A stretch of 64,000 nucleotides of DNA from a virus (IMGVR_UViG_3300028831_000505:76-64075); one strand, 5' to 3'. Numbered from the stretch's first letter, positions 4,534-59,865 are shown. Notes: generated by a model from the letters alone, not told the origin. Numbers and translations are program-made.

Positions 4534-6131
4534 TAGCCCCATCTGCCATAAGAGCGTTTCTGAACCGCCGGCTGGAGTCCTACACTTGGATGAAGGACCT
4601 CACGGCGCGGGAGCTTGACCGCGGCCTGGATGATCTGCATCCGCGCCCCAATTTCAGCGGCTTCAAGCTCAAGCCCTGGCTGCACCAGCTCGTTTGCTTC
4701 CTTCTTATCATCACGTTGAAGCGTTGGATACCATTGCTCGACATGGGTTTGGGGAAAACCATGCTCACGCTGATGGTCCTGCGCTACCGCAAGCAGCGCG
4801 GCGAGAAACCCCGGGCCATTGTGTTCGTGCCTTTCATCACTGCCATCGATACTTGGATCGAGGAAACCAAGCTGCACACCCCGGAGCTAAAGTGCGTGCC
4901 GCTGATGGGCACCACGCAGCAGAATCTCGACCAGTTGATGAACGACACCGGCGACCTGTTCGTGATCTGCTACCATTCGGCGTTGGCCATGATCACCGAG
5001 AAGGTCAGTGTACGCAGTTCCAAGAAAAAAACGAAGCGCCGCGGTGCCAAGGTTCAATGGCAACTGACTGCCAAGGATGTCAGGTGGTTTTTTCAGGACT
5101 TCGACATGCTCGTCATGGACGAGCTGCACAAGATCAAAACGGTCAGCAGCCTGACCTACCGCATGTGCAAAGCTATCTCGCAAGTTTGCGAGTACGTGAT
5201 TGGGCTTACCGGCACCCCCTTCGGCCGTGACCCCGGGGACCTGTGGCCACAATTTGCCATAGTGGATTTTGGCGCCACGCTGGGCGACACCTTTGGTTTG
5301 TTTCGATCCGTGTTCTTCGAGGAGAAGATAAATAAATGGGGCGGGTACGAGTACAAGTTCAAGAAGTCCCTGCTTGGCGACCTCAAGCGGATCATTCAGA
5401 ACAGCTCGATCCGATACAACGTGGAGGAATGCCATGACATGCCCCCGCGCCAATACATCGTCAAATATGTGCGGCCGACGCAGGGCATGGCCACCTACTA
5501 CAACAAGGCGCTCGAGCAGCTTGAGAAGATAAGGGCCAGCAAGGGTGGCTACCGGGCCATTGAGAATCGGTACATCCAGCTTAGGCAGCTCTCATCCGGC
5601 TTTATGACGCTGCGGGGTGAGCAGGATGACAAAATCTATGTCAACCTCGACGAGAACCCCAAGGTGGAGGCGCTGCTTGACCTGATCGACGACATGCCCA
5701 TTGGTCGGAAGATGATCGTGTTTCACCACTTCCGCCAAACCAGCAAGGTTATCTCAGAGGCGCTGACCAAGGCAGGGATCAAGCACATTTGCATCCTTGG
5801 TGGGGTCAAGGACGCGGTCGCCCGGGTTAAGAAATTCAGGGATGACCCCTACTGCGACGTGCTGGTAATCAACAGTGAGTTGGGCTCCTCCTCGCTCAAT
5901 ATGCAGTGTGCGAACTACGTCGTATATTTTGAGCAGCCGGAGAGTAGCACCGACCGGGACCAGTCGGAGCGGCGCTGCTGGCGGCCGGGGCAACTGCGCA
6001 AGGTCTTTTTCTTTGACCTGTTGATGCGAGGCACGGTAGACGTGACAAAGAACGGATACAATCAGCAGGGCCGCAACCTGCTACGCAGCATAGTGGACGG
6101 CAAGTCAAAGATAAGAAGGCTGGCGGTATGA
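4530..6131 (+). CDS. SNF2-family (SF2) helicase
   Basis: LDMGLGKT (motif I), DELH (motif II), LTGTP (motif III), LNMQCA and QSERRCWRPGQ (motifs V/VI). Confidence 0.92.
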   Translation: MIAPSAIRAFLNRRLESYTWMKDLTARELDRGLDDLHPRPNFSGFKLKPWLHQLVCFLLIITLKRWIPLLDMGLGKTMLTLMVLRYRKQRGEKPRAIVFVPFITAIDTWIEETKLHTPELKCVPLMGTTQQNLDQLMNDTGDLFVICYHSALAMITEKVSVRSSKKKTKRRGAKVQWQLTAKDVRWFFQDFDMLVMDELHKIKTVSSLTYRMCKAISQVCEYVIGLTGTPFGRDPGDLWPQFAIVDFGATLGDTFGLFRSVFFEEKINKWGGYEYKFKKSLLGDLKRIIQNSSIRYNVEECHDMPPRQYIVKYVRPTQGMATYYNKALEQLEKIRASKGGYRAIENRYIQLRQLSSGFMTLRGEQDDKIYVNLDENPKVEALLDLIDDMPIGRKMIVFHHFRQTSKVISEALTKAGIKHICILGGVKDAVARVKKFRDDPYCDVLVINSELGSSSLNMQCANYVVYFEQPESSTDRDQSERRCWRPGQLRKVFFFDLLMRGTVDVTKNGYNQQGRNLLRSIVDGKSKIRRLAV

Positions 6132-8516: not shown

Positions 8517-8913
8517 AAAGATGGACCTGCCAAAGCCGGTTGAGCTCTTCGCTGCCTACCACGAGCAACATGGATATGCGACCTTCAACGAGGATATCAA
8601 TTTTGTGCGTGCACATGCCGCCGCAAGCGCCCAGTCCACCCGCTTCTCGGTTCTCAAGGTACGGGTCGTCGCAATTGAGGACGTGACGGTGAGAACACCC
8701 ACACCAACTGGCTCATGGGTTCTCGTGAACAACAAGGGCTGGAGGGATCATGTTGGATGGGTGATTGATTTTGATATTCGCGACTTCGCCAACCGGCCTG
8801 ACCACGTGATGACTGTTGTATTGGACGCCAAAGGAACCCGCAGGGCGCTTCCCGCCAAGGTGTTGAGTGAAGCCCCGGTTGAAAGAAGGGGCTGGCCCAC
8901 AGGCACAACCTGA
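8506..8913 (+). CDS. hypothetical protein
   Basis: 135-aa ORF overlapping the primase stop. Confidence 0.5.
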   Translation: MGIEKMDLPKPVELFAAYHEQHGYATFNEDINFVRAHAAASAQSTRFSVLKVRVVAIEDVTVRTPTPTGSWVLVNNKGWRDHVGWVIDFDIRDFANRPDHVMTVVLDAKGTRRALPAKVLSEAPVERRGWPTGTT

Positions 8914-8991
8914 ACCCCCTTGCTTTTTCACGGGTTTTTGGGCTCCATGTTACATCAAAGTGATTTGCCACAATTTGGGATGGATTTGCGC

Positions 8992-9582
8992 ATGAGACGT
9001 TCGCGCCGCCGCAACCGTGCACCCTGGGTGAAGGTTGACATATGGGAACCGACCTGGAGCCCTGAGATCGTCGGTTGGTCCGTCAACTTCTACAACAGAA
9101 ACAAGTGGCGCTTCGACAGCAAGGACCGCTGTGATCCGGTCATGACGGTCGACGACCTGATGCAGGAAGCCTACATCATCTTTGAGCGCGTCCGCGCCAG
9201 CTACCCGCGCGTGATTGACCCGCGCCATTTCATGGCCCTTTACAAAACCTCCATCCAGAACGACATGACCGACAGGTCGCGGCTTGAGCGCAAACGGGAC
9301 GCAACCATTGAGGATTTGGGGGAGGATGCCTCCTCCGCGCTCGCGGGTCGTATGGACGACGAGAGTGGTTATCTGGCTGTGCTCCTCAGTGAGATGCCCC
9401 GAGAGGTTCAGTTGCTGATCGCCGGCATGCAAAGGGATGACGTTGCGGTGGCACTGCGCGAGCCCTATGAGAAGGACGAAGCCGGTGTCAGGAGCGAAAC
9501 CTTTGGAGAACGTCTGTGCCGTCTCATTGGCATTGACCCGGCAACCCGGCCGCTCCAACAGTTGCGGGAATTGCTTGCGTAA
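8992..9582 (+). CDS. putative RNA polymerase sigma factor-like protein (start uncertain)
   Basis: DDLMQEAYIIFERV and F...YKTSIQNDMTD resemble sigma region 2; LLSEMPREVQ resembles the start of region 4. Confidence 0.65.
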   Translation: MRRSRRRNRAPWVKVDIWEPTWSPEIVGWSVNFYNRNKWRFDSKDRCDPVMTVDDLMQEAYIIFERVRASYPRVIDPRHFMALYKTSIQNDMTDRSRLERKRDATIEDLGEDASSALAGRMDDESGYLAVLLSEMPREVQLLIAGMQRDDVAVALREPYEKDEAGVRSETFGERLCRLIGIDPATRPLQQLRELLA

Positions 9583-14972: not shown

Positions 14973-15230
14973 ATGAGCACAACACTTATCGCCGGCATCA
15001 GGGCAATCGACGAGGTGGCGCGCCGCGCCAACATCAACGAACCTTTTACCATAACAGTGGAATTTCGGGACCCGGAGCTCGCGGAGTCCTTCATGATACA
15101 GGTTAAAGTCGAAATCGATAGTGAGGGGCTAGTCACCCCCAAGGTGGTCAGCACTTCGGCCAATTACCACCAATTACAAATTCTGGGCCTGCTTTTTCGT
15201 ATAAAAAGGGGTAGCCCCGCAAAGGCCTAG
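14973..15230 (+). CDS. hypothetical protein
   Basis: 85-aa ORF before the polymerase. Confidence 0.55.
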   Translation: MSTTLIAGIRAIDEVARRANINEPFTITVEFRDPELAESFMIQVKVEIDSEGLVTPKVVSTSANYHQLQILGLLFRIKRGSPAKA

Positions 15231-15242
15231 AGCGCCCCGCCC

Positions 15243-17930
15243 ATGGGTTTTTTGTTTACCACGCCTCAGCAGCAGCCCAAGGGGCCGCCCAAGCAGCGCA
15301 CGGGCCGCGCTGCGGGCGGCGTGGGGCCTAAAACGGCCGCCAGTGCCGCCACCTTGAACCGGCTGGGGTGTTCAGCCTGCCCGCTCAACGACGCCAAGGT
15401 CAATAGTCCCAAGATGCCGGCCTTCCTTCCTGTTAGGCCGTGTGACATTTACTTCCTTGCCGAGGCTCCGGGCGAAACAGAGGACCGTGAAGGGGAACCC
15501 TTAATTGGGAAGTCCGGCCAGTTGCTGCGCAGCCTCATCCCCAAGCGCTATGAAAATACCTGTGCTTACGACAACGTTGTGCGGACCCGCCCGCCCAAGA
15601 ACCGCGACCCCACCTGGGTTGAGGTCGAGTGTTGCCGAGGTCACCACACCAAAAGCATCGAGAAGGCCAAACCCCGGTTAGTAGTTGGCCTGGGGAAATT
15701 CTCCCTCAACGCCGTGCTAGGCTCCATGGATATGCAAGGCCTGCGCGGTCGTATGTTCGCGGTCAAGTTTGGCAACCACTCCTGTTGGTTCATGCCAACC
15801 TATCACCCGGCCTTTATCCTGCGGCAGGCCTATGACGACAAGAAGCCCCTGCTCTCGCGGATGGGCCATTGCTTCAAGATGGACATCAGGCGGGCCTTTG
15901 ATGTGCTGGACGGGCTCAAGCCCCCGCGCATCCAAACAGAGGCAAGCATCAGGGCCGACATCCTGACCTTTGACGGGTCCGAACCCGGCCACTTCGAGCG
16001 GTTAATGAACTTGCTCATCGTAGCGCAGCAGGTCCCCGAAAAATCAGTCGACTACGAGACCCAAGGCTTACGCCCGTACAGGAAGGACTCCGCAGTCCTG
16101 ACCTGTGCAATCAGCTATGACGACCCGGACGCGGGCGAGGCGCATTTCTCATTTGCCCTGGATCACCCCAAGGCCAAGTGGACCAAGGTGCAACGCAAGG
16201 CTATTGGGGCAAAGCTGCTCGAAATTCTTAGCGACGACACCTTCAAGGTTGCCCACAACGTACCGTTTGAGGTCGAGTGGTCCATCTTCATGTATGGCGC
16301 CGCCCATGTGCGTCACGGGGCTTGGGACTGCACAATGATGCAGGCTCACTTCCTGGACGAGCGCCGGGGCAAGCAGTGGCGTGACGATGACCGCCGAGCG
16401 GCCTATCAGGACCTTGACTTCCTCTGCCGCCAGTATTTTGGTGTGGGCTACAAGTCGTTCTTTAAGCTGAACAAAAAGAACATGGCCGGCGCTGATCTGG
16501 GCGAAACCCTCATCTATAACGCTGCCGATACCAAGGTCGCATTGTGGCTGCACCGCGTGCAAGTAGCCCTGCTGAAACGGCGTGGCCTCTATGACGCTTA
16601 CCTCGACTCGGTCCAGCGCCAGCCTGCCACGGCGTTGATGCAACACTTTGGAATACCCGTAAATCAGAAGGCCGTGGTACGCAACGGGAAACGTCTCAAG
16701 GCTGAGATTGAAGAGATCGAGGATGAGATAAACGACCTCAGGGTGGTGAAGGATTACACCCGGGACTATGGGGAGTTTAATCCGGGGTCGAACCCTGACG
16801 TTTTGAAGGTGTTCAAGGATTACCTCAAGCGGTCCGAGATAAAGGTTCCCAAGAAGTACCACAAGCCGGGGGAGAGTGAGTTTGAGTACTCGGTCGACGA
16901 GGCGGTGCTCAAGGAAATAGATCATCCCCTGGCCGAGCTGGTTCTTGCCTTTCGTAACCGCAGCAAATTGAAGTCCACCTATTGCGACGGGCTGGACATG
17001 CGTAACTACGACAACCCGCAGTACAAGAAACGGGTGGTCATCCACCGTGACGGGCTGGCTCACAGTTCGTTCAACATGACGTTCACTGAAACCGGCCGCA
17101 CCAGTTCTGACGATCCCAACCTTCAAAACTTCCCCAAACACAAAGACGCGTGGATACGCAACGAGATCTGGGCGCCCCCCGGCTATGTGCTGGTGGCGGC
17201 GGACTACAAGCAGCTTGAATTCTGCGCCGCGGCCTGTTGCAGCGGGGATAAAGTGCTGATCGACGCCGTTTGGAGCGGCTACGACGTGCACATGGATTGG
17301 GCTGAGCGGCTATCGGCGCGCTACCCGCAGGCGGTGGGCGGGCTCAAGTTCCGCAAGGACAAGGACGTAATGAAGGCGCTGCGCCAAAAGGTGAAAAACA
17401 AGCTGGTGTTCCCAGCTATCTTTGGCGCTCAGGACGACTCCATTGCGGGCTACCTCGATATGCCTGAGGACGTCATTGGCAAAGTCATGAACGACTTCTG
17501 GAGCATCTTCCACGGGATCAAGACGTGGCAAGATGAGATGATGCAAGGCTACTACGATGAGGGCTACGTCAGCACCATGAATGGGCGGTTGCGCTGGTAC
17601 CCGTTGAACCGCAACCAAGCGATCAACCACCCAGTGCAGGGCTCGGCCTGCGAAATCGTCTGCGACGGCATGACGCGCCTCTCGAAGCAGGCTGTGGAAA
17701 CCGAGCAGTGGCACATCCACCCGCGCATGAACATTCACGACGACCTGTCGTTCTTGATACCCGACGACAACAACCGGGTGTTTGAGGAGTCGGTTGAGAC
17801 CATCTACAAAGGAATGTTGAGTTGCCCCTACAAGTGGATCAACGTGCCGCTGGCCGTTGAGTTATCGGCCGGCGTTCACTGGGCAGAAATGGAAGCGTTT
17901 GGAAACTTCTCAAGCCACAAGGATCTCTGA
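15243..17930 (+). CDS. polA: family A DNA polymerase with N-terminal family-4 uracil-DNA glycosylase-like domain and 3'-5' exonuclease
   Basis: UDG4: CSACPL, AEAPGETED, GKSG, RPPKNRDP, TYHPAF; Exo: DYETQG, AHNVPFE, YNAAD; Pol: TGRTSSDDPNLQN, AADYKQLE, RQKVK..., NHPVQG, NIHDDL. Confidence 0.95.
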   Translation: MGFLFTTPQQQPKGPPKQRTGRAAGGVGPKTAASAATLNRLGCSACPLNDAKVNSPKMPAFLPVRPCDIYFLAEAPGETEDREGEPLIGKSGQLLRSLIPKRYENTCAYDNVVRTRPPKNRDPTWVEVECCRGHHTKSIEKAKPRLVVGLGKFSLNAVLGSMDMQGLRGRMFAVKFGNHSCWFMPTYHPAFILRQAYDDKKPLLSRMGHCFKMDIRRAFDVLDGLKPPRIQTEASIRADILTFDGSEPGHFERLMNLLIVAQQVPEKSVDYETQGLRPYRKDSAVLTCAISYDDPDAGEAHFSFALDHPKAKWTKVQRKAIGAKLLEILSDDTFKVAHNVPFEVEWSIFMYGAAHVRHGAWDCTMMQAHFLDERRGKQWRDDDRRAAYQDLDFLCRQYFGVGYKSFFKLNKKNMAGADLGETLIYNAADTKVALWLHRVQVALLKRRGLYDAYLDSVQRQPATALMQHFGIPVNQKAVVRNGKRLKAEIEEIEDEINDLRVVKDYTRDYGEFNPGSNPDVLKVFKDYLKRSEIKVPKKYHKPGESEFEYSVDEAVLKEIDHPLAELVLAFRNRSKLKSTYCDGLDMRNYDNPQYKKRVVIHRDGLAHSSFNMTFTETGRTSSDDPNLQNFPKHKDAWIRNEIWAPPGYVLVAADYKQLEFCAAACCSGDKVLIDAVWSGYDVHMDWAERLSARYPQAVGGLKFRKDKDVMKALRQKVKNKLVFPAIFGAQDDSIAGYLDMPEDVIGKVMNDFWSIFHGIKTWQDEMMQGYYDEGYVSTMNGRLRWYPLNRNQAINHPVQGSACEIVCDGMTRLSKQAVETEQWHIHPRMNIHDDLSFLIPDDNNRVFEESVETIYKGMLSCPYKWINVPLAVELSAGVHWAEMEAFGNFSSHKDL

Positions 17931-34560: not shown

Positions 34561-35349
34561 TCACGTTGCTATCCAAATCGAAGTGACGCGCCGCTGACGT
34601 GCCGCAATCTCTGGCGCCGGCAGGCTGCTGGTTGACTGGGAGGCCGCGGGCCTGATCGCAGAACCCGAGGCAACCCTTGGAACAAACGAGTTCGTGAACG
34701 AAACTGATGGGATACGAACAGGTAGAGTCTCCGCCTTGCCCTCAGCCGTCGCAAACTCAGCCGTCGACGCTTCGCCTGTACCACCGCCAGTGCGCGGCAT
34801 GTTTACTAGATAATCACCTGTAATGCGAGCGCCGCTTGCGAGGCGGGGGGTGGGGCTGGTTGAAGCGCTTGTCGTTCCCGGAGCCGCGACAAGGCAGCCT
34901 ATGGCAATGCGGGAAGCAGGGTTGGTAGACGAACTGTTGCTGACCGGGGCGCTTATCCTTGAACCTGAGGCCAGCCGGGGCGTAGGGCTTGTTGTGGTGC
35001 TAGGGCTGTCCCCGGCCCGTACGTCTGCGCCTGCCGCAGGCCGTGGGGCTGGACTGGTCGACGTGCTGGCGCTGCCCCCAGCACGGACGTCTGCACCTGC
35101 CCCAAGGCGCGGCGCGGGGCTGGTTGAGGTTGAATTGCTCGCGTCCGCACGCACATCCGCGCCCGCGTCCACGCGCGGGGTGGGGCTCGTAGACGTACTA
35201 TTGCTGACCCCCGGAATGATATGCGCGGGGTTAAGCTGCGGCACCGGGTTGGTGGAAGTAGAGGCACTACCGGGGGCAAGAATGAGTACGCCGCCCTCAG
35301 GCCCGGCGGTATCGCGTTGACCAGTGCTGAAAATGCCGGTCGTCGACAT
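34561..35349 (-). CDS. Ser/Thr/Pro-rich 22-aa repeat protein (putative virion protein)
   Basis: Tandem PRL.AGADVRA..S.STSTSP(A/T) units; located in the tail module. Confidence 0.7.
   Translation of the reverse strand: MSTTGIFSTGQRDTAGPEGGVLILAPGSASTSTNPVPQLNPAHIIPGVSNSTSTSPTPRVDAGADVRADASNSTSTSPAPRLGAGADVRAGGSASTSTSPAPRPAAGADVRAGDSPSTTTSPTPRLASGSRISAPVSNSSSTNPASRIAIGCLVAAPGTTSASTSPTPRLASGARITGDYLVNMPRTGGGTGEASTAEFATAEGKAETLPVRIPSVSFTNSFVPRVASGSAIRPAASQSTSSLPAPEIAARQRRVTSIWIAT
34820..35290 (-). repeat. degenerate 66-bp / 22-aa tandem repeat
   Basis: About seven units, e.g. PRVDAGADVRADASNSTSTSPA / PRLGAGADVRAGGSASTSTSPA / PRPAAGADVRAGDSPSTTTSPT. Confidence 0.8.
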
Positions 35350-51091: not shown

Positions 51092-51565
51092 TTAGTCGGA
51101 GTCACCCGCGCCGGCCAGCACCGGCAGTTCCTGGAAGCCACCGAACACGACCACCGCGGTGAAGTCTGCGGTGTCGGTGTTGGCTGCCGACAGGTCAACC
51201 ATCCAGTCGAACCGAATCTGGTCGTCAGCGCCGGTGAGGTCGAAGTTGGCTTGGTGCAGTTCGCTGTCGTTGAGCCCCTGATCCACGGGGGCACGGGTGT
51301 CCTGCACGGTCCACACCGAGCCCTGCGGGCTATCCGACATGCGAATGGAGATCGACGACTTGTCGCCGCCTTGCTGCCCGGCGGTCTTGGCCAAGAAGAA
51401 CACCGCGCACGAGCGGGGGCGCGAACGCCACTGCTTGAGGTCGATGGTGAGGCCGTTCTGCCAGACGTTGTCGTTGCCGGAACCCGCCACCGCCTGGGTG
51501 GTGAGGGCCGCGATGGCGCCAACAAGGTAGGCGCCAATGTTGTGTTGCATGGGCTTGGTGGTCAT
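51092..51565 (-). CDS. putative capsid decoration/cement protein
   Basis: Directly after the MCP, beta-rich, high GC3, GAGGAA RBS. Confidence 0.6.
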   Translation of the reverse strand: MTTKPMQHNIGAYLVGAIAALTTQAVAGSGNDNVWQNGLTIDLKQWRSRPRSCAVFFLAKTAGQQGGDKSSISIRMSDSPQGSVWTVQDTRAPVDQGLNDSELHQANFDLTGADDQIRFDWMVDLSAANTDTADFTAVVVFGGFQELPVLAGAGDSD

Positions 51566-51643
51566 GTGGTTCCTCTGCGAGTTCGGGGAGGGGGTTTTCC
51601 TACACCCCGCCCCTCAGGTTACGGGTCTGGTGGAGCGTGGGGC

Positions 51644-52876
51644 TTAGCCGCCCCAAGCCACGCCGGTCTTCACGGCAACCGATTCGCCGTGGCGCATGGC
51701 GAAGTCGTGCCGGCTGATCGCGCGGATCAGCGTCTCGTCGCGGGAGAAGGCCGACTGCACTTCGCCGTTCTCCACGTAGGCCGCCGAGGAATCCGTGACG
51801 ATCTCGAGGGCGGTGGCTTCGCCGATGATCGCGTCCGTCATTTCGGCGAGCATGATCTCGGAGTCGTCGCCATTGCCCAAGTTGGCCGGAACGCTCGTCG
51901 AGACAAACACCGGCCAGCCGTACAGCACCGGCGCGGTGCCACGGATTTCCGGGTAGATGAGTTCGCCGTTGGTGGTGCGCAGGTTCCGCAGGTAGTTCTT
52001 GCGGGTCGGGTGCATGAACCACGCAGGCTTCTGCATGGCCACGTTCGCGCTTTCCAGGGCGTTGATCAGGTCCCGGAAGTCCTCCTCGATCTGCGTCGAG
52101 GACGTGCCGGCCGACGGGATGACGTTGCCCGGCACCGCCCAGTTGCGCATGCCCTTGGGGGTGTGCTGGGAGCCGTCGTCGCGAAGGAAGGCGCGATCCT
52201 CACGGATGGCCATTTCCAGCACGAGGTCGTCGCGAACGAACTCGTCGGCCGAGGGGCCGGACGTGAACGCCAGCAGGTCATTGCTGATCGGCACAATCGC
52301 GGCGAGCTTCTTGCTCGACAGGTCGATCTGACCGACTTCCGGCGCGGTGGTCGGAATGTTGCGCGACTCACCGACGTACGAGGCGCTGGAACCCGCCGTC
52401 TGCTTGCGGATCGTCAAGGCACCACGGTTCATCGGCACCACGCGGGCGCCTGCACCACGGACCACGGTCCGGGCACGAAGCAACTCGATGATTTCCGCCG
52501 CGTACTCGGGCGGGATGAGCGCACCGGCCTGGGTCAGGTTGGACGCCATCAGCGCCTTCTGGACCTCGGTGCCGAGCTCGTCGTCGAAGGCCTTCGAGCA
52601 GAAGTACTTGACCTTCTCCATGTTGCCGTTGGCGAACGCCAGGGCGCGGACACAGCGCGCGGCCGCAATGCCCTTCATGTTGTCCTTGATGGTAAACTTG
52701 CGGTCACGGATGATGCGCGATCCGTTGGTCTCCTCAAGCGGGGGGTCGCTACGCTGCTCCCCGCCACCGCCCTTGACGTTCTTGGCCACGGCGGCTTCGA
52801 CCATCGGGCCAAGCTTGGCCAGGATGCCCGCCGAGAGGGCTTCCATGTTGGTCGGTTGGGTGGTACGGTCGTTCAT
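51644..52876 (-). CDS. major capsid protein (HK97 fold)
   Basis: GALIPPEY..EIIELLR, YVGE, KKLAAIVPISNDLL, EDRAFL.DDG, G..IYP...LYG.PV; GAGG RBS before MNDRTT. Confidence 0.95.
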   Translation of the reverse strand: MNDRTTQPTNMEALSAGILAKLGPMVEAAVAKNVKGGGGEQRSDPPLEETNGSRIIRDRKFTIKDNMKGIAAARCVRALAFANGNMEKVKYFCSKAFDDELGTEVQKALMASNLTQAGALIPPEYAAEIIELLRARTVVRGAGARVVPMNRGALTIRKQTAGSSASYVGESRNIPTTAPEVGQIDLSSKKLAAIVPISNDLLAFTSGPSADEFVRDDLVLEMAIREDRAFLRDDGSQHTPKGMRNWAVPGNVIPSAGTSSTQIEEDFRDLINALESANVAMQKPAWFMHPTRKNYLRNLRTTNGELIYPEIRGTAPVLYGWPVFVSTSVPANLGNGDDSEIMLAEMTDAIIGEATALEIVTDSSAAYVENGEVQSAFSRDETLIRAISRHDFAMRHGESVAVKTGVAWGG

Positions 52877-52936
52877 TGGGTCGTCCTCGATGCAGGCCAC
52901 CTTCTGGCCTTCGTTGCAAAATGGGTATGCCGACGG

Positions 52937-53812
52937 TTAGTCGAGCTTCCCCCGCTGGCGGTCAAGAGCGGTCTTGACCAATTCGTCGATCTTCGGTCCG
53001 AGCCCTTCGAGAAAGCTCTTGATGAAGGTGTCCACGTCGCCGGCTTCGGTGGGCACGGTAATATCGAGCGTCGTGCCTGCCGCACGGCTGACCTTGCCGG
53101 CCGGATCGATCAGGTCGGCGAGGTCGCGCATAAAGCCCGCGTTGAACTTGAGGCGGCGGGCAAGCTGCTTGTCCCCACCAGCCTTGAGCGCGCCCTTGTC
53201 CAGCACCGCTTCGAGGCCATTGAGCACCGTTTCCAGCACACCCACGACCTCGAGGTCGGTGGCCTTGCGCTCGGTGATGGCCTTGGTGTCCACGACCTTG
53301 CCGTCGACCCGAAGCTCCTCCGCACCACCATCCTTGTTGGTGTGCACGATGAAGATGTCGACGCTGGAGCCGGCCGGGGTTGCCCGGGTGCCTTTGTCGG
53401 TCTCGTCCTTGGGGTCCTTGGGCGCGGGCGCCGACGGGGTCTTCGTCTCCACGGCCTTGGAGCTTTGCAGTTCGGCCACCAGTGCCTTGCGCTCCGGATC
53501 ATGGGAAAGCACCTTGTACACTGCGGTGAGGTTGGCACCCTTCACGGTGAGGGTGGTGGTCGCCATCTTGTCCTTGCCCTCGCCGGTCTCGGTGACGTCC
53601 ACGTCGATCACCTTGTTGCCGAGCGCGCCGTCACGGTCCGTCAGGGCCTCGGTGGTGATCAAGGTCTTCTTGGGCAGGTCCTTGCCCAGGATGATCTTGC
53701 CACCCTCATTGGCCACAATCAGCTCCTCGGCATCCTTGTGCTCGGGGGCCTTGGTAACGGGAAGCCCATCGAGAAGGGCCTTGAAGTCGGCGGCGGTCTT
53801 GGGATTGGCCAT
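52937..53812 (-). CDS. putative internally initiated scaffolding protein (in frame within the protease gene)
   Basis: CAGGAG-CCCACC-ATG in frame at codon 252 (MANPKTAADF). Confidence 0.5.
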   Translation of the reverse strand: MANPKTAADFKALLDGLPVTKAPEHKDAEELIVANEGGKIILGKDLPKKTLITTEALTDRDGALGNKVIDVDVTETGEGKDKMATTTLTVKGANLTAVYKVLSHDPERKALVAELQSSKAVETKTPSAPAPKDPKDETDKGTRATPAGSSVDIFIVHTNKDGGAEELRVDGKVVDTKAITERKATDLEVVGVLETVLNGLEAVLDKGALKAGGDKQLARRLKFNAGFMRDLADLIDPAGKVSRAAGTTLDITVPTEAGDVDTFIKSFLEGLGPKIDELVKTALDRQRGKLD

Positions 53813-54565
53813 GGTGGGCTCCTGTTGCGATTTCTGAGCGCGAATTTTGTTGAGGTTGGATTCACGCAAGCGGGCTTCCATATCGGGGGGCAAGTGGATG
53901 GTGACGCCTGCGCCCGCTGCTGTGCGGCGGACCTGCTCCATCTTCGCTCGGTCAGCGCCGTAGATCACATTGATCTCGTCGCCTACTGTCTTCCAGTCGT
54001 CGAGTACCATGCCGGCCCACTTGGCGATGGGGGCGGTGTCAATGCCCTTGCTGCGGGCGTCAATCAGGGCGTCGGGGTTGGCCGGGATCGGCACGCAGCT
54101 ATATTCGAGCAGCTCCTGTTTGAGGAAGCGGTAGCCGGTGATGTTCTTGTCGTCGTCTTCAATGTACTCCCACTTGATGGGAATGAAGCCGACGCTCACA
54201 GCGCGCAAATACCTGCCCACGTACATGCGGAAAATGCTGTATGCGAACGGGCTGGTGTCCCGATCCATAAACTCGCAGGTTGATTTGAGCGCAGTGTCCT
54301 TCCAGATTTTGATCGACTGGCCGACCGGGGGGATGTAGTTGTTGTGAGCGAACAGCACAACGGGGTTGCGCTTGTATTCGGCAAGCTGCCACCCGTTCAC
54401 CTGAACAGAGTCCCCGTATCGGTCCTCACGGTCGGTGCTGATGGTGAAATCAATGAGACGCTTCTCTTCGTCGATGGACCGGATGTCGTCGCAGACGTAC
54501 TGGCGCCGCTGGAGCACCCCTTCTGCAATGGCAGGATGCCCGGCCTTGAGAGCGTATTTAAGCAT
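52937..54565 (-). CDS. HK97-family prohead protease with C-terminal scaffold-like extension
   Basis: DRYGD, NPVVLFAHN, PVG, AVSVGF, ELLEYSCVPIPANPDA. Confidence 0.92.
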   Translation of the reverse strand: MLKYALKAGHPAIAEGVLQRRQYVCDDIRSIDEEKRLIDFTISTDREDRYGDSVQVNGWQLAEYKRNPVVLFAHNNYIPPVGQSIKIWKDTALKSTCEFMDRDTSPFAYSIFRMYVGRYLRAVSVGFIPIKWEYIEDDDKNITGYRFLKQELLEYSCVPIPANPDALIDARSKGIDTAPIAKWAGMVLDDWKTVGDEINVIYGADRAKMEQVRRTAAGAGVTIHLPPDMEARLRESNLNKIRAQKSQQEPTMANPKTAADFKALLDGLPVTKAPEHKDAEELIVANEGGKIILGKDLPKKTLITTEALTDRDGALGNKVIDVDVTETGEGKDKMATTTLTVKGANLTAVYKVLSHDPERKALVAELQSSKAVETKTPSAPAPKDPKDETDKGTRATPAGSSVDIFIVHTNKDGGAEELRVDGKVVDTKAITERKATDLEVVGVLETVLNGLEAVLDKGALKAGGDKQLARRLKFNAGFMRDLADLIDPAGKVSRAAGTTLDITVPTEAGDVDTFIKSFLEGLGPKIDELVKTALDRQRGKLD

Positions 54566-54599
54566 GTAGGAACCCCTGACCCATGATCAGCGGCAAAAG

Positions 54600-54633
54600 G
54601 AAATACCTTCTTCGAGCAAAATGTCAACAAGGA
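54600..54633 (-). promoter_or_regulatory. candidate promoter for the head operon
   Basis: On the - strand TCCTTGTTGACA-16 nt-TATTTC; TCCTTGTTGA also occurs upstream of the gene starting at 31781. Confidence 0.4.
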
Positions 54634-54641
54634 TCACAAGG

Positions 54642-55202
54642 ATGGATGAAAAGTTGGACCTTCCCACCCGCATTCGAATCCTTCTTGCTCAAGGACCAGC
54701 CAAAGACGACTGGACTTCCCAGCTTGAGGAGATCTTTGGATGCGCCAAGGGTTTCCTTGCAGACCCCAAACTGTCTGAGGTTGAGGTCTTCCAAAACCTC
54801 AGCAGGCCAGAGTGGGGGCAATTCACCGTCAGCCAAAACGACGAGGGGCTAACAGCCACGTGGCTCCGCACTGACGGCGGGCCGCCTGTTGCTGTGCAGT
54901 ACCTACGCGAGACTAGCCGGGACGGCGCCGTGTTCGTTGTTCTACAGGCCCTATTGGCTCACGCTTTACAGGAGCAGGGTCTGGGAACTTACGTCGATGT
55001 GAGGACGCCGAACTGGCGACGGGCAAGGGTCGTGGTTAACGGCAAAGAAATGGAGGGGGTTGTGCGGGCGTGCGCGGTGACTGGATTTTGCGAAGTTATA
55101 ACACCGAAGTCGAAGGTTGGACCCGACAACAGGCTGGCCACACAAAAACTACGGGGCTTGGTGACCATCACCTTCGATAAGGTCGACAGGACCTTCTTCT
55201 GA
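54642..55202 (+). CDS. hypothetical protein
   Basis: 186-aa ORF divergent from the protease gene, AAGG RBS. Confidence 0.55.
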   Translation: MDEKLDLPTRIRILLAQGPAKDDWTSQLEEIFGCAKGFLADPKLSEVEVFQNLSRPEWGQFTVSQNDEGLTATWLRTDGGPPVAVQYLRETSRDGAVFVVLQALLAHALQEQGLGTYVDVRTPNWRRARVVVNGKEMEGVVRACAVTGFCEVITPKSKVGPDNRLATQKLRGLVTITFDKVDRTFF

Positions 55203-55712
55203 AAGCCACTCGGCCGTTGGTAGGCCGAACGTTTCGGCCGTCCATCCGGAGAACGACCTGAGGCATTTGGCAAGCTCAGCGGCTTGGTCGTTCCACGCCT
55301 TCCTATAATGCTGTGAAGCCGTCCATGGAACCCCACGCACAAAGTGCCCGCCGTCAGTAGTCATCGGGATGCCACAGGCGACAATCCTCGTTGCCTTAGC
55401 CCTGAACCGCGCCACGTTGACGGCGAGCAGCCCCGAGGAGCCGCCCGTATGTGGAATCTGTTTGAAGGGCAGATTGAAATGGCGCTTCCGGTGGGCGGCT
55501 GTCCATAACACAGGGTCATGGTAGTCGTTCTTGCGCCGTGCTTCCAGCCATCGGTTCATCTTCTCAGGGTGCATGGTGCACCAGTGGTCAACCGCGGGCA
55601 GATTGATTGCAATATCGTTTGCGGCCACCACCACATCGGGTTTGAATAGCTTGGTGGCCAGCTCTATTTCTTTCCAGACACACTCAGCACCGCCAATCAC
55701 CAGTGCTTTCAT
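55149..55712 (-). CDS. putative glycosyltransferase (Maf/DUF115 or sialyltransferase-like Rossmann fold)
   Basis: ALVIGG...VVAAND...HWCTMHP...GGSSGLLAV...IVACGIPM. Confidence 0.55.
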   Translation of the reverse strand: MKALVIGGAECVWKEIELATKLFKPDVVVAANDIAINLPAVDHWCTMHPEKMNRWLEARRKNDYHDPVLWTAAHRKRHFNLPFKQIPHTGGSSGLLAVNVARFRAKATRIVACGIPMTTDGGHFVRGVPWTASQHYRKAWNDQAAELAKCLRSFSGWTAETFGLPTAEWLSEEGPVDLIEGDGHQAP

Positions 55713-56416
55713 CGCCAATTCTCCTTAACCCATGGATAGTTATCCGCCACCCCAGGCGTCCACGGATCAAACTTGCCGTGAAAGAACACAGCGCGGGCAT
55801 TTGAAGGCAAGGCTGTCCGACCAAGGCGAATAAAATAGTTACGGAAGCTGTAGATTCCGTCAGCCTCGCCCCACGTGGCCTCCTTTGGGCCAAGGACATG
55901 GCTGATCCACGCCTGATCCGAACCAACTATCCCGGCCAAGGCCGTTATGCCGGGGGACTGCCTTGGGTCGAACTCGTCCCACACCCGTTGCCGGGCGCCC
56001 GGGGTGAGCAACATCATGGAGCCGTTGTAGAAGGTATTCTTGGCCGTGTCGCCCCAAGCAATGAAGTCTTCCTTGCGTGAAGCCAACGGGGTCATATCCT
56101 TCACAATGACCGAGTCGAGGTCCAGTGACAGAATGCGGTTGCCAAAGATAGGAATGACCTCGGACGAGAACATGCGCAGGCGCCGGTAGCAGTTGGGTTT
56201 GTTGTTTGGGCGGGAGAGCGGGGCAATCTCGTCCCACAGCGGTACTACCTCAACCCGGGGATCAATCCCTACAGGGTCATCGGTGGCGCAGATGAAGCGG
56301 TGTGGCATGTGGAGGTGTCGTTCGACCATGTTCCGCAGCACATTCACATGCCGCGCCGTGAACACCGACCGGTAACCGGGCTTGGCCTGCCACTTCCACG
56401 TAACTACGGACAGCAT
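55709..56416 (-). CDS. GT-A (GT8-like) glycosyltransferase
   Basis: HRFICATDDP, DxD motif SLDLDSVI, YNGSMM, GSDQAWI, VFFHGKFDPW. Confidence 0.82.
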   Translation of the reverse strand: MLSVVTWKWQAKPGYRSVFTARHVNVLRNMVERHLHMPHRFICATDDPVGIDPRVEVVPLWDEIAPLSRPNNKPNCYRRLRMFSSEVIPIFGNRILSLDLDSVIVKDMTPLASRKEDFIAWGDTAKNTFYNGSMMLLTPGARQRVWDEFDPRQSPGITALAGIVGSDQAWISHVLGPKEATWGEADGIYSFRNYFIRLGRTALPSNARAVFFHGKFDPWTPGVADNYPWVKENWR

Positions 56417-57306
56417 TGAGGCTCTCCAAAACTTCCCGCAAGGATCTCGTCCATCAGGACGTCAAAGATGAAGGCTCCATTTCTGCCAGCCGGCAGAAAA
56501 CGGCAGCCATAATAAGCGGGCAGCGTCCAGCCAACGGTAGTCTCAAGCAGGCGCCACGGTCCGCCCTCCCCGTCACGCACAAGGTCAATGCCGGCCCAGG
56601 TCAAATTGTGCTCCACAGCTATCTGTTCGCCAAATGCAAGGGCGCTCAGCGCCTCTTCCTCTGGAAGGACAATTGGCAAGGTCAGGCCTGACCCCGACGC
56701 CATGGGTCGATCCGGCCGGTTGCCACGGCGCATCATGAGGCGTCCGGTTTTGCCAATGAACAGAATCCTAAAGTCGTTGTCGTTTCCAGGACAGAACTTT
56801 TGCCAGATCAAATAGTCCTTCTGCCTGAGGCCATACTGACCCTTGATGCCGCCCTTATGGAACACATTGTGGGCTTCGCCAGCCGCCTCACGTGCCGTTT
56901 TGATCAGCCGCACATTGCGTGAGCCAGAACCAATCGAGGTTTTGGATATGAATGGGTACTGAGCCGTTTTGGCGTGGGCCATGGCGTCATCGTAGTTCTC
57001 AAACACTCTTGTCTCGGGCATCCACCGCTTAAAAACCTTTGCCTGACGAAGTTTGTCATCGTAAAGGCGTGCCGAAGCGGCGTCCGGGATCACCACAAAC
57101 TCCGGGCGCGCGGCGAATCTAGCCACAAGATCCTTATCCTTCCTGCGGCGGCCGGGGCTATTGTGCATATGGATAAAAATGTACCCACTTTCCCCTTCAA
57201 GTGGGTCGTCCCTTTTGAAAAGCTTGGCATTCCACCCACGTTGACAAGCCAGGGTATAGAGCAGCAGGCCCCAACCACTCTCGTCGTTGTAGACAAACAG
57301 CCTCAT
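56404..57306 (-). CDS. RimK-like ATP-grasp ligase
   Basis: DDKLRQ, MPETRV, YPFISKTSIGSGSRNV, IWQKF, DFRI, AGIDLV, LLE. Confidence 0.85.
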   Translation of the reverse strand: MRLFVYNDESGWGLLLYTLACQRGWNAKLFKRDDPLEGESGYIFIHMHNSPGRRRKDKDLVARFAARPEFVVIPDAASARLYDDKLRQAKVFKRWMPETRVFENYDDAMAHAKTAQYPFISKTSIGSGSRNVRLIKTAREAAGEAHNVFHKGGIKGQYGLRQKDYLIWQKFCPGNDNDFRILFIGKTGRLMMRRGNRPDRPMASGSGLTLPIVLPEEEALSALAFGEQIAVEHNLTWAGIDLVRDGEGGPWRLLETTVGWTLPAYYGCRFLPAGRNGAFIFDVLMDEILAGSFGEPQCCP

Positions 57307-58028
57307 GCCTGCGCAGCCCAGTCGATCTCGCTCCACGGGAAGGTAAGGTTATGAGGAGTGGGGTCTTTCGCGATGAGAGCACGTGCTTTTTGCACCCCCT
57401 CGCGGTCCATCTGCTGCTTGCGCAAGTAATTTGTTGTGGAAGCGTCAGGTACGACTTCGCGACCAACGCGAATGACCGGGTAGCGGAGCATGATGGGCTC
57501 ACCCGTTCCACGGACCACACGGTCACGAAATTCCCCATCTGAGCCATAAAATCCTGAGAATCGCTCATCGTAACCCCCGATTCGCTGGAAAACGGCCCTT
57601 TCCATGAGCCAAGTGTTGGGATGAGGCTTGTAACTATGCATCTCTGGGGCCGAGACGCGTTGGAATCGGAAGGCTCGACCAGCCTCCAGCTCGTGAGAAA
57701 GCACCGCTTGAGCCGTGCGTTCTGGCACCAAATGATCAATATCGGTCATCAGAATCCAGTCAGTTCGGGCCTTTTCAGCCCCTAGATTCCGGCAAAACAG
57801 CCAATTCCAGCGCACATCCACGCCACATCTGAACAGCCGTAAGCTGCCAAAGCCTGGATTGCTGGTAATTCTGGCTATCTGATCGGGGGAACCGTCATCG
57901 ACCACGATGAGGTCCCAGCAACCCAGCAGCCCCGGCCCCCACGCCCGCATATGGTCAAGCTGCGCGGTGAGCATTCCAGGATTTCGATAGTACGGGAGGA
58001 TCAAGGTAACCCGGCGACGCGCTTCCAT
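57303..58028 (-). CDS. GT2-family glycosyltransferase (GT7C-like C-terminus)
   Basis: VVDDGS, RNLGA, TDIDH, IGGYDERFSGFYGSD. Confidence 0.88.
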   Translation of the reverse strand: MEARRRVTLILPYYRNPGMLTAQLDHMRAWGPGLLGCWDLIVVDDGSPDQIARITSNPGFGSLRLFRCGVDVRWNWLFCRNLGAEKARTDWILMTDIDHLVPERTAQAVLSHELEAGRAFRFQRVSAPEMHSYKPHPNTWLMERAVFQRIGGYDERFSGFYGSDGEFRDRVVRGTGEPIMLRYPVIRVGREVVPDASTTNYLRKQQMDREGVQKARALIAKDPTPHNLTFPWSEIDWAAQA

Positions 58029-58037
58029 GTGTCCTGC

Positions 58038-58697
58038 CTAAACCTGTTCCCCGTCCCTTCGACGAAGAAACATGCCCATATGCCCTAGATCTATGGCATG
58101 CACCCCCGCCCGCGCAAGTTCCCAAGCCAAAACCGTGGCGGTAGCCCCGAGACACAGTATGACCCGCCGTTTCTCGGGGCGCAGGCGCGCGACCAGCGCG
58201 TTATACTCAACATAGGCGTGTCTGACCGGGGCAATGACCTCTTCAACGCTGGCGGCGCCCGGCATGCGTTCAGGCAACAACGATTTGCCGCCCCCGCGCA
58301 CCAGCACCACGTCAAGGCCGCGCCAGAGGCTGCGCACCTTCTCCCAATAGGGCGGGGTATCAATCCACGGGGCTGAGTCCGGCCGGCTCACAAATGACGA
58401 CCCGTAGATCCACGTCGGGTCGTAGAGGTTCGTGTATTTTGGTGCCGCGTATTGCCCCCAGAACACGTGCTTGGGCGTTGTGCTCATGACGTTGGGGATG
58501 CAAACCAGACATTCCTTGGACCTCGATTTGAGGATAACACGCAGCTTCTCGCAAAGCTCAGGGTGAAAGTCCTGTGACTTGGCCGAGTGCCCCAACGCAA
58601 GCTTTAGTTCTCCATCGCCGTAGCGCGACATCGACTGCCCAGCCAGCACCATATCCAGCGTTTGCCTCTCGTCGATAACGTTGGGGTAAGCTGGCAT
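58038..58697 (-). CDS. GT-D fold glycosyltransferase (DUF1792)
   Basis: SMSRYGDGE, FVSRP, W....VVLV.G, LCLGATATVLA..L...G..AIDLGH. Confidence 0.88.
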   Translation of the reverse strand: MPAYPNVIDERQTLDMVLAGQSMSRYGDGELKLALGHSAKSQDFHPELCEKLRVILKSRSKECLVCIPNVMSTTPKHVFWGQYAAPKYTNLYDPTWIYGSSFVSRPDSAPWIDTPPYWEKVRSLWRGLDVVLVRGGGKSLLPERMPGAASVEEVIAPVRHAYVEYNALVARLRPEKRRVILCLGATATVLAWELARAGVHAIDLGHMGMFLRRRDGEQV

Positions 58698-58751
58698 GAT
58701 TTCCTGCCCTTGCTGCGTATAGCTTGGCTGACACTACAGCGGGGCTTTGCA

Positions 58752-59057
58752 ATGAGCAATCCAGATAGAACTGTGCTGGTCTCCGGAATGAGACTGCGGT
58801 CAGGCAAGACCATCGATGTGCTGGCCCCCAATACCGGGGATTGGATGGATTATATCCTGGTCGTGATAGAAAAGCCGGCACTGCAAATTATGGAATTCTT
58901 TGTGCCCATCTGCACAAGCCTCACCTATCAGGAGTTCAGATCGCTTCCAATTGAGGAAGGGGCAGCCATTCTCGAACCCATCACAAAAGAGATTAATTCA
59001 GCAAGTCCATTCCTCCTGGCGGCGCTAAAGACCACGTCAGAACGGAAACCGCAATGA
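58752..59057 (+). CDS. hypothetical protein
   Basis: Divergent from the GT operon; ATGA overlap with the next gene. Confidence 0.5.
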   Translation: MSNPDRTVLVSGMRLRSGKTIDVLAPNTGDWMDYILVVIEKPALQIMEFFVPICTSLTYQEFRSLPIEEGAAILEPITKEINSASPFLLAALKTTSERKPQ

Positions 59058-59542
59058 TCCTCGCGGTCACAGGTCACCGGCCGGACAAGCTGCTCGGCTA
59101 CGGCAAGGCCGCGCGTGACGCGCTTGAGGCCTTCGCCATAACCGAACTGCAACGATTGAAGCCATCCCAAGTTATCACCGGCATGGCGCTGGGCTGGGAC
59201 ACGGCCATTGCCGAAGCAGCGGCAAAGCTGTCCATCCCCTTCATTGCCGCCGTCCCTTTTGTTGGCCAGGAGAGGACGTGGCCGGCTGAGGCAAAGGCCC
59301 AATACCGGGGACTGCTTAGGGAGGCCAAAGAGGTCCACGTTGTCTGCCCCGGGGGTTACAGTGCATCGAAGATGCAAATGCGCAATGAGTGGATGGTCGG
59401 GCGCTGCGCCAAGCTGCTCGCCTTATGGAACGGCTCGCCCGGGGGCACCTCCAATTGCATTGCTTATGCCGAATCGTTACGGTGCTCCGTCGAAAACTGC
59501 TGGGACCGATTTCAAAGCAGATGCGAAAGCGCTGGGTCATAA
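59054..59542 (+). CDS. YspA/SLOG family (DUF1273-like) protein
   Basis: AVTGHRP, TGMALGWD, VPF..Q, RNEWMV, WNGSPGGT. Confidence 0.88.
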   Translation: MILAVTGHRPDKLLGYGKAARDALEAFAITELQRLKPSQVITGMALGWDTAIAEAAAKLSIPFIAAVPFVGQERTWPAEAKAQYRGLLREAKEVHVVCPGGYSASKMQMRNEWMVGRCAKLLALWNGSPGGTSNCIAYAESLRCSVENCWDRFQSRCESAGS

Positions 59543-59865
59543 GCCACCCCGAGTACGGGGTGTTGGTTGCCATACAGGATCAAGGTGTGGGGGAGGACGG
59601 CCGTCCCAAGCACCTGACGTTCTGGTCGCATCTTGGTTGCGACGGCTGGGGCAGCGTCATTACCTTCCCAACTGAACACGAGGCGAAAGAGGTCCTGGGC
59701 GTGTGGGCGGGGTATGTAGCGCAGCAATGCAATCTCGTCTTCGTGCGCTGCTCTGGCACACGCGCACGCCCTGAGGAGCTTACTGAGGCCGGGCTGTTCG
59801 AAGCCGCGGCCCCGCTATTCTTTGAGCGGGCCGTGAGCGGGCCGGACGGGGTGACACTGCAATGA
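59521..59865 (+). CDS. hypothetical protein
   Basis: MRKRWVISHPEYGV...; ATGA overlap downstream. Confidence 0.5.
   Translation: MRKRWVISHPEYGVLVAIQDQGVGEDGRPKHLTFWSHLGCDGWGSVITFPTEHEAKEVLGVWAGYVAQQCNLVFVRCSGTRARPEELTEAGLFEAAAPLFFERAVSGPDGVTLQ

Follow-up and report, generated by a model that had tools for sequence, protein, structure and literature searches.

A five-gene glycan cassette near the capsid genes of a siphovirus: a candidate system for glycosylating virion proteins

What use might a tailed phage have for a compact set of sugar-handling enzymes placed near its capsid genes? The question is raised by a 64,000-nucleotide stretch of virus DNA (hereafter the window; bases 76–64075 of the 64,075-bp IMG/VR record IMGVR_UViG_3300028831_000505, which is classed as linear and has a CheckV completeness of 68%), in which five co-directional open reading frames (ORFs), g1 to g5, run on the minus strand from 58697 to 55149. 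An earlier examination of this DNA without database searches (the sequence-only reading) had proposed that the five genes glycosylate proteins of the virion. We put the probability that the cassette serves late-expressed, cytoplasmic glycosylation of virion, probably head, proteins at about one in two. The proposal has gained real but indirect support because relatives of g3, g4 and g5 are embedded in head modules, and because no enzymes for modified DNA precursors were found in the contig or in a complete relative.

The cassette genes, as read from the sequence, are as follows.

58038–58697, minus strand: g1, the first cassette gene, a glycosyltransferase (GT) of GT-D fold (DUF1792 type), 219 amino acids (aa), by Pfam PF08759
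57303–58028, minus strand: g2, a GT2-family (GT-A fold) glycosyltransferase, 241 aa, by PF10111 and PF00535
56404–57306, minus strand: g3, a RimK-type ATP-grasp ligase, 300 aa, by family profile against the PDB and Atlas structure
55709–56416, minus strand: g4, a GT8-like (GT-A fold, LgtC/glycogenin-like) glycosyltransferase, 235 aa, by PHROG 1962 and Foldseek
55149–55712, minus strand: g5, a minimal MptE-like/Maf/sialyltransferase-fold domain, putative CMP-ulosonic-acid transferase, 187 aa, by VIA-align and hhalign

Our reading of the sequence agrees with the positions, strand and tight coupling first described for these genes. The TAG of g1 is followed after 9 nt by the ATG of g2; g2 and g3 share an ATGA overlap (57303–57306); g3 and g4 overlap by 13 nt (56404–56416); and g4 and g5 share a second ATGA (55709–55712) with AAGGAG upstream. 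The shorter ATG starts of g3 and g5 agree with homologue lengths and N-termini. Judged by family matches for g1 and g2 and by homologues for g3 (71), g4 (at least 1484) and g5 (59), these are real genes and not chance ORFs. None of the five proteins has a membrane segment, the maximum 19-residue Kyte–Doolittle window ranging from 0.65 to 1.52 across them. GtrABC-type seroconversion employs a membrane flippase (GtrA), a bactoprenol glycosyltransferase (GtrB) and a membrane serotype-specific glycosyltransferase; the sequence-only reading had set this type of locus aside after recognising no transmembrane anchors, and on both points it was right. It had also recognised no sugar-nucleotide synthesis, which holds for the CMP-sugar synthetase (PF02348) and NAD-epimerase (PF01370) families; neither was found in the 68%-complete contig or in G001, the complete genome of a relative described below, and host donors must therefore be used.

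The enzyme classes first assigned to g1, g2 and g3 were confirmed, those of g1 and g2 by Pfam families above their cut-offs. The match of g1 to PF08759 (E 1.4e-27, 97.4 bits, cut-off 27) places residues 23–207 on profile positions 1–200 of 225. Against TIGR03728, the equivalog model of the SP_1767 family, g1 reached 108.7 bits, below the cut-off of 290.75, and on these scores it is a relative of that family and not an equivalog. Residues 24–33 of g1 read SRYGDGELKL, in which GDGE provides a D-x-E near the N-terminus; D-x-E is the N-terminal metal-binding motif of GT-D enzymes. g2 matched PF10111 with 36.2 bits (cut-off 27.3) and PF00535 with 27.6 bits (cut-off 23.3), and its translation contains VVDDG and D96-I-D98. 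For g3 the Pfam matches were sub-threshold only (PF02786, 14 bits, cut-off 19.8; PF02655, 12.3 bits, cut-off 23.2), and TIGR00768 gave 22.6 bits, below its cut-off of 143.4. A profile of 46 g3 homologues found the RimK-domain protein 5i47 (E 4e-4) and RimK 5zct (E 4e-3) in the PDB, and the ESM Atlas model superposes on RimK/LysX clusters with TM-scores of 0.76–0.88 over residues 1–300, which makes the ATP-grasp assignment RimK-type. The canonical C-terminal Mg-binding motif of ATP-grasp enzymes is E-x-N; the g3 family has the consensus L-E-T-T-V-G-W, in which E255 is invariant and T257 nearly so, and the RimK alignments ended before this region.

The labels 'GT8-like' for g4 and 'Maf/sialyltransferase-like' for g5 were borne out by fold. 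g4 matches PHROG 1962 ('glycosyltransferase', E 3.3e-15) and has no Pfam match at E up to 1, GT8 (PF01501) included; its family profile against the PDB was weak (E 0.13–0.4 to GT8 chains). Its AlphaFold2 model (pLDDT 93.3) gave 288 Foldseek matches at E up to 1e-3, with LgtC (E 5.3e-9, TM-score 0.63–0.65), glycogenin and the PsrP-glycosylating GlyE in the range up to 3e-8. D99-x-D101 is invariant among 40 homologues, and the family comprises at least 1484 homologue clusters (about 55% identity) with 302 confirmed IMG/VR stretches. g5, with 171 IMG/VR stretches, has no Pfam (E up to 1), PHROG or NCBIfam match, and its family profile found nothing in the PDB below E 1. Its AlphaFold2 model (pLDDT 92.4) aligned in VIA-align with SteA (Z 11.3), Maf 5mu5 (Z 11.3, 176 residues), Cst-I (Z 10.6) and an MptE-type HPPK (Z 10.1), the next match being at 7.8; Foldseek placed sialyltransferases first (E about 1e-3). 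Profile comparison pointed the same way for g5, since hhalign of the family with a phage MptE-like protein (itself sub-threshold for PF01973) gave a probability of 90% (E 1.4e-6, 121 columns). A fused g5 relative, in locus L090, reached PF01973 sub-threshold at E 0.0074. The Atlas neighbours of g5 include viral MptE-like clusters, CST-I and a bacterial cluster annotated 58% MptE-like and 43% WaaZ_KDO_III. g3, g4 and g5 are thus fold-level relatives of named families and not members at the level of hidden Markov models. Catalytic-type motifs are kept in g1 (GDGE), g2 (D-I-D) and g4 (the invariant D-x-D).

If virion proteins are the target, the five genes would act as one translationally coupled operon of soluble cytoplasmic enzymes that draws on host nucleotide-sugars and, while particles assemble, equips a virion protein with a short modified oligosaccharide. 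A head component would be the most probable target, either the major capsid protein (MCP) or an accessory or decoration protein. In the order we presume, g5 would transfer an ulosonic acid from a CMP-activated donor to Ser/Thr or to the first sugar; candidate donors are CMP-Kdo (3-deoxy-D-manno-octulosonate), which is available in any Gram-negative host, or alternatively the activated forms of pseudaminic acid (Pse), legionaminic acid (Leg) or neuraminic acid (Neu). g4, g2 and g1 would add hexose-type residues from UDP-sugars, and g3 would ligate an amino acid or amine to the sugar carboxylate or, alternatively, act on a protein C-terminal carboxylate as RimK/LysX do. The glycan might serve in shielding, stability or adhesion.

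A survey of linkage to head genes had been suggested as a check of the original proposal. We fetched 80 of the 302 g4 stretches, 79 of the 171 g5 stretches and 25 g3 loci (24 of them new); the g5 search used a 12-sequence alignment, and the locus counts include near-duplicate contigs. Relatives of g4, g5 and g3 were found repeatedly inside head modules of many unrelated phages and prophages. Clustering of the neighbours at g5 loci and annotation of representatives gave a recurrent order of portal, (hexapeptide acyltransferase), g4-like glycosyltransferase, g5 in one to three tandem copies, scaffold, MCP, Ad1, Hc1, head-morphogenesis protein, Neck1 and tail terminator. Of 78 IMG/VR loci, 55 show a recognised head gene no more than 3 kb from g5; when only the 45 loci that extend at least 3 kb to either side are counted, 29 do. 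Among 38 non-redundant pairs of g5 and the next head gene, there are 27 in which the head gene's first ATG is at most 100 nt from the g5 stop. Chromosomal prophages of Pseudaminobacter, Shinella, Brevundimonas and Hyphomonas share this layout. Paracoccus phage Pkon1 (vB_PkoS_Pkon1) carries the g5 domain within an ORF that directly follows, and overlaps, the MCP gene. Such neighbourhoods link the gene set as a whole to late expression with the head genes.

Several phages encode proteins of about 1000 aa that have the g5 domain as their C-terminal part and also carry a class-I methyltransferase domain and GT-like regions, and the Atlas lists g5 fusions to GT2 and Nucleotid_trans domains. Such multidomain chains (L092 6418–9522, L124 6448–9516 and L150 6286–9513; also L125, L126, L130 and L131) look like a single-chain version of a glycan cassette, and in L090 and L106 another N-terminal domain, of 290 aa, is fused to g5. 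Further cassette neighbours of g5 are FkbM and other methyltransferases, hexapeptide acyltransferase, FAD oxidoreductase and short-chain dehydrogenase/reductase (SDR) genes. Eight loci (L085, L097, L104, L105, L111, L142, L153 and L154) have three to five diverged g5-family paralogues in tandem within one head module, accompanied by methyltransferase, FAD-oxidoreductase and SDR genes, which suggests glycan cassettes much larger than that of the window.

Genes around g4 are typically arranged as MCP, FkbM or other methyltransferases, GT-D, a GT8 paralogue, GT2 and g4. Among the 80 g4 loci, 64 have a g2-type GT2, 21 a GT-D, 6 an ATP-grasp gene, 12 an MCP of the window's type and 1 a g5. Where at least 1 kb of upstream flank is available (70 loci), the end of the GT2 ORF is no more than 400 nt from g4 in 38. 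In L033 the cassette lies between the MCP and the adaptor and closure genes, with Ad1, Hc1 and Neck1 following it. A g4 homologue is found downstream of g3 in 22 of the 24 new IMG/VR loci, often with a GT2 in between; tblastn of g3 against GenBank phages (50,697 phage records) gave no match. In L010 the g5 homologue that follows GT2 and g4 is split into two short ORFs (8681–8914 and 8930–9208), which may reflect a frameshift or a decaying copy.

Three of the genes do occur together in a GenBank phage, the 39-kb 'Tetraselmis viridis virus S20' (NC_020840, locus L084; S20/SI1, HQ632858), where nine cassette genes stand between the head genes and head closure. Its relatives of g1 (54% identity, annotated 'glycosyl transferase'), g2 (49%) and g4 (48%) are in the same order, on the structural strand and within the head module. 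The S20 cassette differs in having two 'sialyltransferase' genes and a methyltransferase, in having no ATP-grasp gene, and in sitting after the MCP and not before the protease; g5 aligned only weakly with a sialyltransferase-annotated ORF of S20 (hhalign probability 72%, 37 columns). The statement that this gene combination was not recognised as described is therefore accurate for the full set, which is in no fetched locus, and not for its sub-modules, which are widespread. S20 is labelled with an algal host, yet its genome, with terminase, portal, protease, tape measure, endolysin, RecT and DnaB genes, is that of an ordinary Caudoviricetes siphovirus; about 17% of this genome is glycosyltransferase cassette, and the true host is presumably a bacterium.

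Given this variety of gene content, we considered whether the five genes form one pathway at all. They could instead have gathered at a hypervariable insertion hotspot as independent glycosyltransferase 'moron' genes with different targets or none in common, which might be host proteins, small molecules or free oligosaccharides. All five genes together were not seen in any of the 80, 79 and 24 fetched loci, so that the suggested check of co-conservation came out negative, and composition varies widely among loci. Content differs even at 64% MCP identity, the level shared with the closest relative, L001, whose genome G001 (102,569 bp, terminal repeats, 100% complete) has a different cassette at the same position, before an opposite-strand gene, the protease and the MCP. 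The L001 cassette consists of a g4-like glycosyltransferase (22% identity), an MptE-like protein, a methyltransferase and a g5 homologue (44%). The picture drawn from these comparisons is one of a fixed genomic site with modular, fast-changing cassette content. The genes in the window are, however, translationally coupled, particular pairs recur (GT2–g4 in 64/80, g3–g4 in 22/24 and g4-like–g5 in 28/79 loci), and fusions join g5 to glycosyltransferase and methyltransferase domains; modular variation is also normal for glycan loci such as O-antigen clusters. We therefore regard a mere gathering of unrelated genes as distinctly unlikely. Just upstream of its cassette, L001 encodes a WD40 beta-propeller protein, a DnaJ-domain protein and a sigma-70-family factor (1057–2475; 3559–4161, minus strand; 4645–5538, minus strand), unusual companions for a structural arm.

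If the cassette modifies virion proteins, the candidate acceptors encoded in the window, with the protease gene beside them, are the following.

51644–52900, minus strand: HK97-type MCP, 418 aa, candidate acceptor (TIGR01554, E 4.3e-46, 157.8 bits, cut-off 27.5)
52937–54565, minus strand: prohead protease fused to a scaffold-like region, 542 aa (NF045541, E 2.7e-10, and TIGR01543, E 4.8e-7, both below cut-offs)
34561–35349, minus strand: repeat protein of the tail-fibre region, 262 aa, a speculative alternative acceptor (translation, tandem repeat)

The protease–scaffold protein is 44% identical to its L001 homologue. Downstream of the MCP gene is a gene for a 157-aa protein, and the three genes together occupy 51092–54565. 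The protein at 34561–35349, which the sequence-only reading had put forward as an acceptor, has about nine repeats around an S-T-S-T-S-P-x-P-R motif with a 66-nt DNA tandem period. It has no PHROG match and no relative in IMG/VR or G001, and composition is its sole link to the cassette; we found no support for this orphan as the acceptor. In other phages the picture is different in two ways. MCPs upstream of g4 cassettes (L004, L028, L033, L049, L062 and L081) have a variable Ser/Thr/Ala/Pro-rich loop about 40–60 residues before the C-terminus. Collagen-like ORFs, defined by at least eight consecutive G-X-Y triplets and some with a C-terminal globular domain, lie co-directionally between MCP and cassette; the sequence upstream of g4 (387 kb scanned) contained them in 23 of 80 loci, and that downstream (419 kb scanned) in 1 of 80; where the upstream flank is at least 5 kb long, as in 38 g4 loci, 17 have them. 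Examples are L033 2648–3454, L004 2571–4067 and L066 148–1539 and 1543–3309, and others stand beside g5 or g3 (L132/L134/L135 7406–8986, L141 7875–8651, L180, L189–L191 and L197). These ORFs may encode a glycosylated head fibre in related phages. A scan for Ser/Thr-rich ORFs near cassettes was dominated by out-of-frame ORFs of GC-rich DNA and was abandoned.

Two further features flank the cassette in the window.

54621–55202, plus strand: gene for a 193-aa protein of unassigned function, between the cassette and the head genes (ORF; a weak PHROG 3540 match is the only family match)
58698–59053, no strand: divergent region of 356 bp between g1 and a plus-strand gene at 59054, where the promoter of the cassette arm is presumed to lie

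The 3' end of the 193-aa gene overlaps that of g5 by 54 nt and its start is about 55 nt from the protease start; it is kept in the same place and orientation in L001/L087 and in L088. A promoter scan of 54000–59600 gave 1 site against 2.5 expected from shuffles, with no consensus promoter in 58698–59053, and a terminator scan of the same interval gave 5 terminator-like sites against 5.8 expected. The cassette had been described as lying next to the head genes; it does lie on their strand and near the protease–scaffold and MCP genes, but is not contiguous with them.

Several of these observations weigh against glycosylation of the virion. The support for it comes from gene neighbourhood and folds and is one of association. 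The MCP of the window ends without an extension and without the S/T-rich loop of other cassette-bearing phages, and the window has no collagen-like ORF. The opposite-strand gene separates the cassette from the head genes, and since the cassette stands at the start of the arm, beside the 356-bp divergent region, its timing could differ from theirs. The L001 cassette has no GT-D, GT2 or ATP-grasp gene, which shows that conservation does not extend to the five genes as a set, and about 32% of the genome of the window's phage is missing. The g5 fold is common to pyrophosphokinases and SteA; g5 is tied here to glycan assembly, and not to pterin or thiamine pyrophosphorylation, because of its head-module neighbours and its fusions to glycosyltransferase and methyltransferase domains.

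[quoted passage not shown] GT8 enzymes and the WaaZ-like relatives of g5 are classically enzymes of the lipopolysaccharide (LPS) core. The nearest solved structures to g4 are LPS/lipooligosaccharide enzymes such as LgtC, together with other GT8 members, and the Atlas neighbours of g5 include the bacterial MptE-like/WaaZ_KDO_III cluster (58%/43%). Modification of the envelope is also how phage GT8 genes are conventionally read, and those of marine myophages have been taken for host O-chain modifiers (PMC7029224). The original exclusion of host LPS as target stands for GtrABC-type loci and does not extend to this explanation, because soluble LPS-core-type enzymes need no flippase, polymerase or membrane anchor. 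Against it, late head operons, those of prophages included, hold these families in tight packing, either between the portal and scaffold genes or between those for scaffold and MCP, and the gaps are often no longer than 30 nt; this position argues against expression in lysogens and would leave little time for LPS export. The phage also looks lytic, and collagen-like structural ORFs adjoin the cassette in relatives. Envelope remodelling thus seems unlikely to us, although it is the strongest competitor of virion glycosylation.

A third explanation is that the glycosyltransferases decorate modified bases of the phage DNA, as in T4 and the 5-hydroxymethylcytosine (5hmC)-glycan systems of Pyle et al. 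Hypermodification of 5hmC by phage enzymes of GT-A and GT-B type, of which some resemble GT8, is described in a preprint (bioRxiv 10.1101/2023.12.21.572611), and a precursor pathway could sit in the missing third of the genome. Such a system needs a source of hydroxymethyl-pyrimidine. The sequence-only reading had seen no hydroxymethylase, and the 64-kb contig indeed gave no match to thymidylate-synthase-like PF00303, Tet/JBP PF12851 or C5-methylase PF00145; the complete 102.6-kb relative G001 gave none to PF00303 or PF12851, and in the 39-kb S20 annotation, which has no hydroxymethylase or dioxygenase, a 'DNA methyltransferase' is the only DNA-modification gene. We know of no DNA-sugar system that includes an ulosonic-acid-type transferase or an ATP-grasp enzyme, and the cassettes sit with head genes, not with genes of DNA metabolism. 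The odds of DNA hypermodification are therefore low, lower than those of the other explanations.

To our knowledge, a few mycobacteriophages are so far the only phages shown to glycosylate their virions with enzymes of their own, which alters antibody recognition. In Che8, Corndog and Myrna, capsid or tail-tube proteins are glycosylated by the phages' own glycosyltransferases and an O-methyltransferase, as summarized in the sections consulted of papers citing Freeman 2023 (PMC12619734, PMC11600133, PMC12363180, PMC13313380). As far as those sections go, the window resembles these phages in having soluble phage glycosyltransferases near structural genes, with methyltransferases in its relatives, and capsid or tail-tube glycans are what is proposed here too. 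It differs in that tblastn of g1–g5 recovered no Mycobacterium phage, the enzymes being not detectably related; in its set of GT-D, GT8-like, Maf-like and RimK-type enzymes; in hosts that are apparently Gram-negative; and in being known from genes alone.

A known system close to g5 is Maf. Maf enzymes O-link Pse, Leg, N-acetylneuraminic acid (Neu5Ac) or Kdo to Ser/Thr of a cytoplasmic structural protein before its assembly, and E324 and D415 are reported as catalytic residues, in the part of the preprint that was available (bioRxiv 10.1101/2020.06.03.131540). Like Maf of M. magneticum (5mu5), and those of G. kaustophilus and C. botulinum, g5 has the central MptE-like/sialyltransferase-like fold (Z 11.3 over 176 residues); unlike Maf, a 632-residue chain, it is 187 aa long, has no flanking domains and does not match PF01973. 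Conserved positions of g5 include N32, D42, H48 and H123. A second parallel is offered by streptococcal serine-rich-repeat adhesins, on which the DUF1792/GT-D enzyme dGT1 (Fap1) and the GT8 enzyme GlyE (PsrP) act, according to the excerpt consulted (PMC5063993). That system shares GT-D and GT8-type enzymes with the cassette, lengthens, in the cytoplasm, the O-glycan of a repetitive protein as far as the excerpt describes it, and includes GlyE, which is among the top fold matches of g4. The cassette has neither the GtfA/B priming pair nor accessory Sec, g1 is far below the TIGR03728 cut-off, and the only repeat-rich candidate acceptor, at 34561–35349, is an orphan with no cassette link. In giant viruses (PBCV-1 Vp54, Mimivirus fibrils), cytoplasmic glycosyltransferases of the virus glycosylate capsid-associated proteins independently of host secretory glycosylation, according to the abstracts and titles of two papers (PMC5408694, PMC9614988). 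Compared by description only, these viruses differ from the cassette in being eukaryotic, in their double-jelly-roll capsids and in having their own sugar-nucleotide pathways.

The genome around the cassette is that of a siphovirus with two divergent arms, as judged by PHROG scans of the window. The plus-strand arm encodes replication functions (a DnaB-like helicase, a second helicase, primase, sliding clamp, DNA polymerase, clamp loader, single-stranded DNA-binding protein, a UvsX-like recombinase and SbcCD), and the minus-strand arm the structural proteins (prohead protease–scaffold, HK97-type MCP, connector, major tail protein, tape measure, J-like tail protein and fibres). With its own polymerase, clamp, clamp loader, helicases, primase, SbcCD and UvsX-like genes and no integrase noticed, the phage looks lytic. 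Portal and terminase genes were not found in the 68%-complete contig. In G001, where cassette, protease and MCP are at about 77.8–94.3 kb, the portal (15181–16059) is about 60 kb from the protease and MCP genes; the head module of this lineage is thus split, which explains why the window has no portal beside its capsid genes. In a DNA search against GenBank phages, MCP segments were the sole matches of the region. The evidence on the host is mixed. The suggestion of an alphaproteobacterial phage fits the g5 relatives, which are mostly in Alphaproteobacteria and include prophages, and does not fit the nearest isolate MCPs, which belong to Burkholderia phages (43–51% identity). Bases 1–75 of the contig, directly before base 1 of the window, are sequencing-adapter sequence, an assembly artefact left in the public record.

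A broader conjecture, which we offer tentatively and consider rather unlikely as a whole, is that the cassette exemplifies a hypervariable 'capsid glycan island', widespread among tailed phages with Gram-negative hosts and resembling an O-antigen locus, except that its product would go onto the virion. A minimal Maf-like enzyme would use CMP-Kdo, of which every such host has a pool, or another CMP-ulosonic acid to start or cap an O-glycan on head proteins, the GT8-like, GT2 and GT-D enzymes would extend it, a RimK-type ligase would amidate the carboxylate, and in relatives a collagen-like head fibre, its gene directly upstream of the cassette, would be the acceptor. The literature searches turned up neither an account of this cassette nor one of glycosylated capsids in phages that infect Gram-negative bacteria. 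Were the conjecture correct, virion glycosylation would be common in environmental phages and not a peculiarity of actinobacteriophages.

The interest of the locus is greater than that of a single operon, as it belongs to a large uncharacterized family of head-module glycan cassettes, with hundreds of IMG/VR loci, alphaproteobacterial prophages and almost no cultured representatives. Carriers amenable to testing are S20/SI1, Paracoccus phage Pkon1 and Pseudaminobacter salicylatoxidans DSM 6986. If virion glycosylation is indeed their role, the three large Pfam-less families of g3, g4 and g5 would receive their first functions, and Maf-type protein O-glycosylation would be extended beyond flagellins. 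Glycosylation of the virion would then be a common, diversifying trait of environmental and prophage-derived siphoviruses of Proteobacteria, with consequences for adsorption, particle stability, recognition by defences and grazers, and phage engineering.

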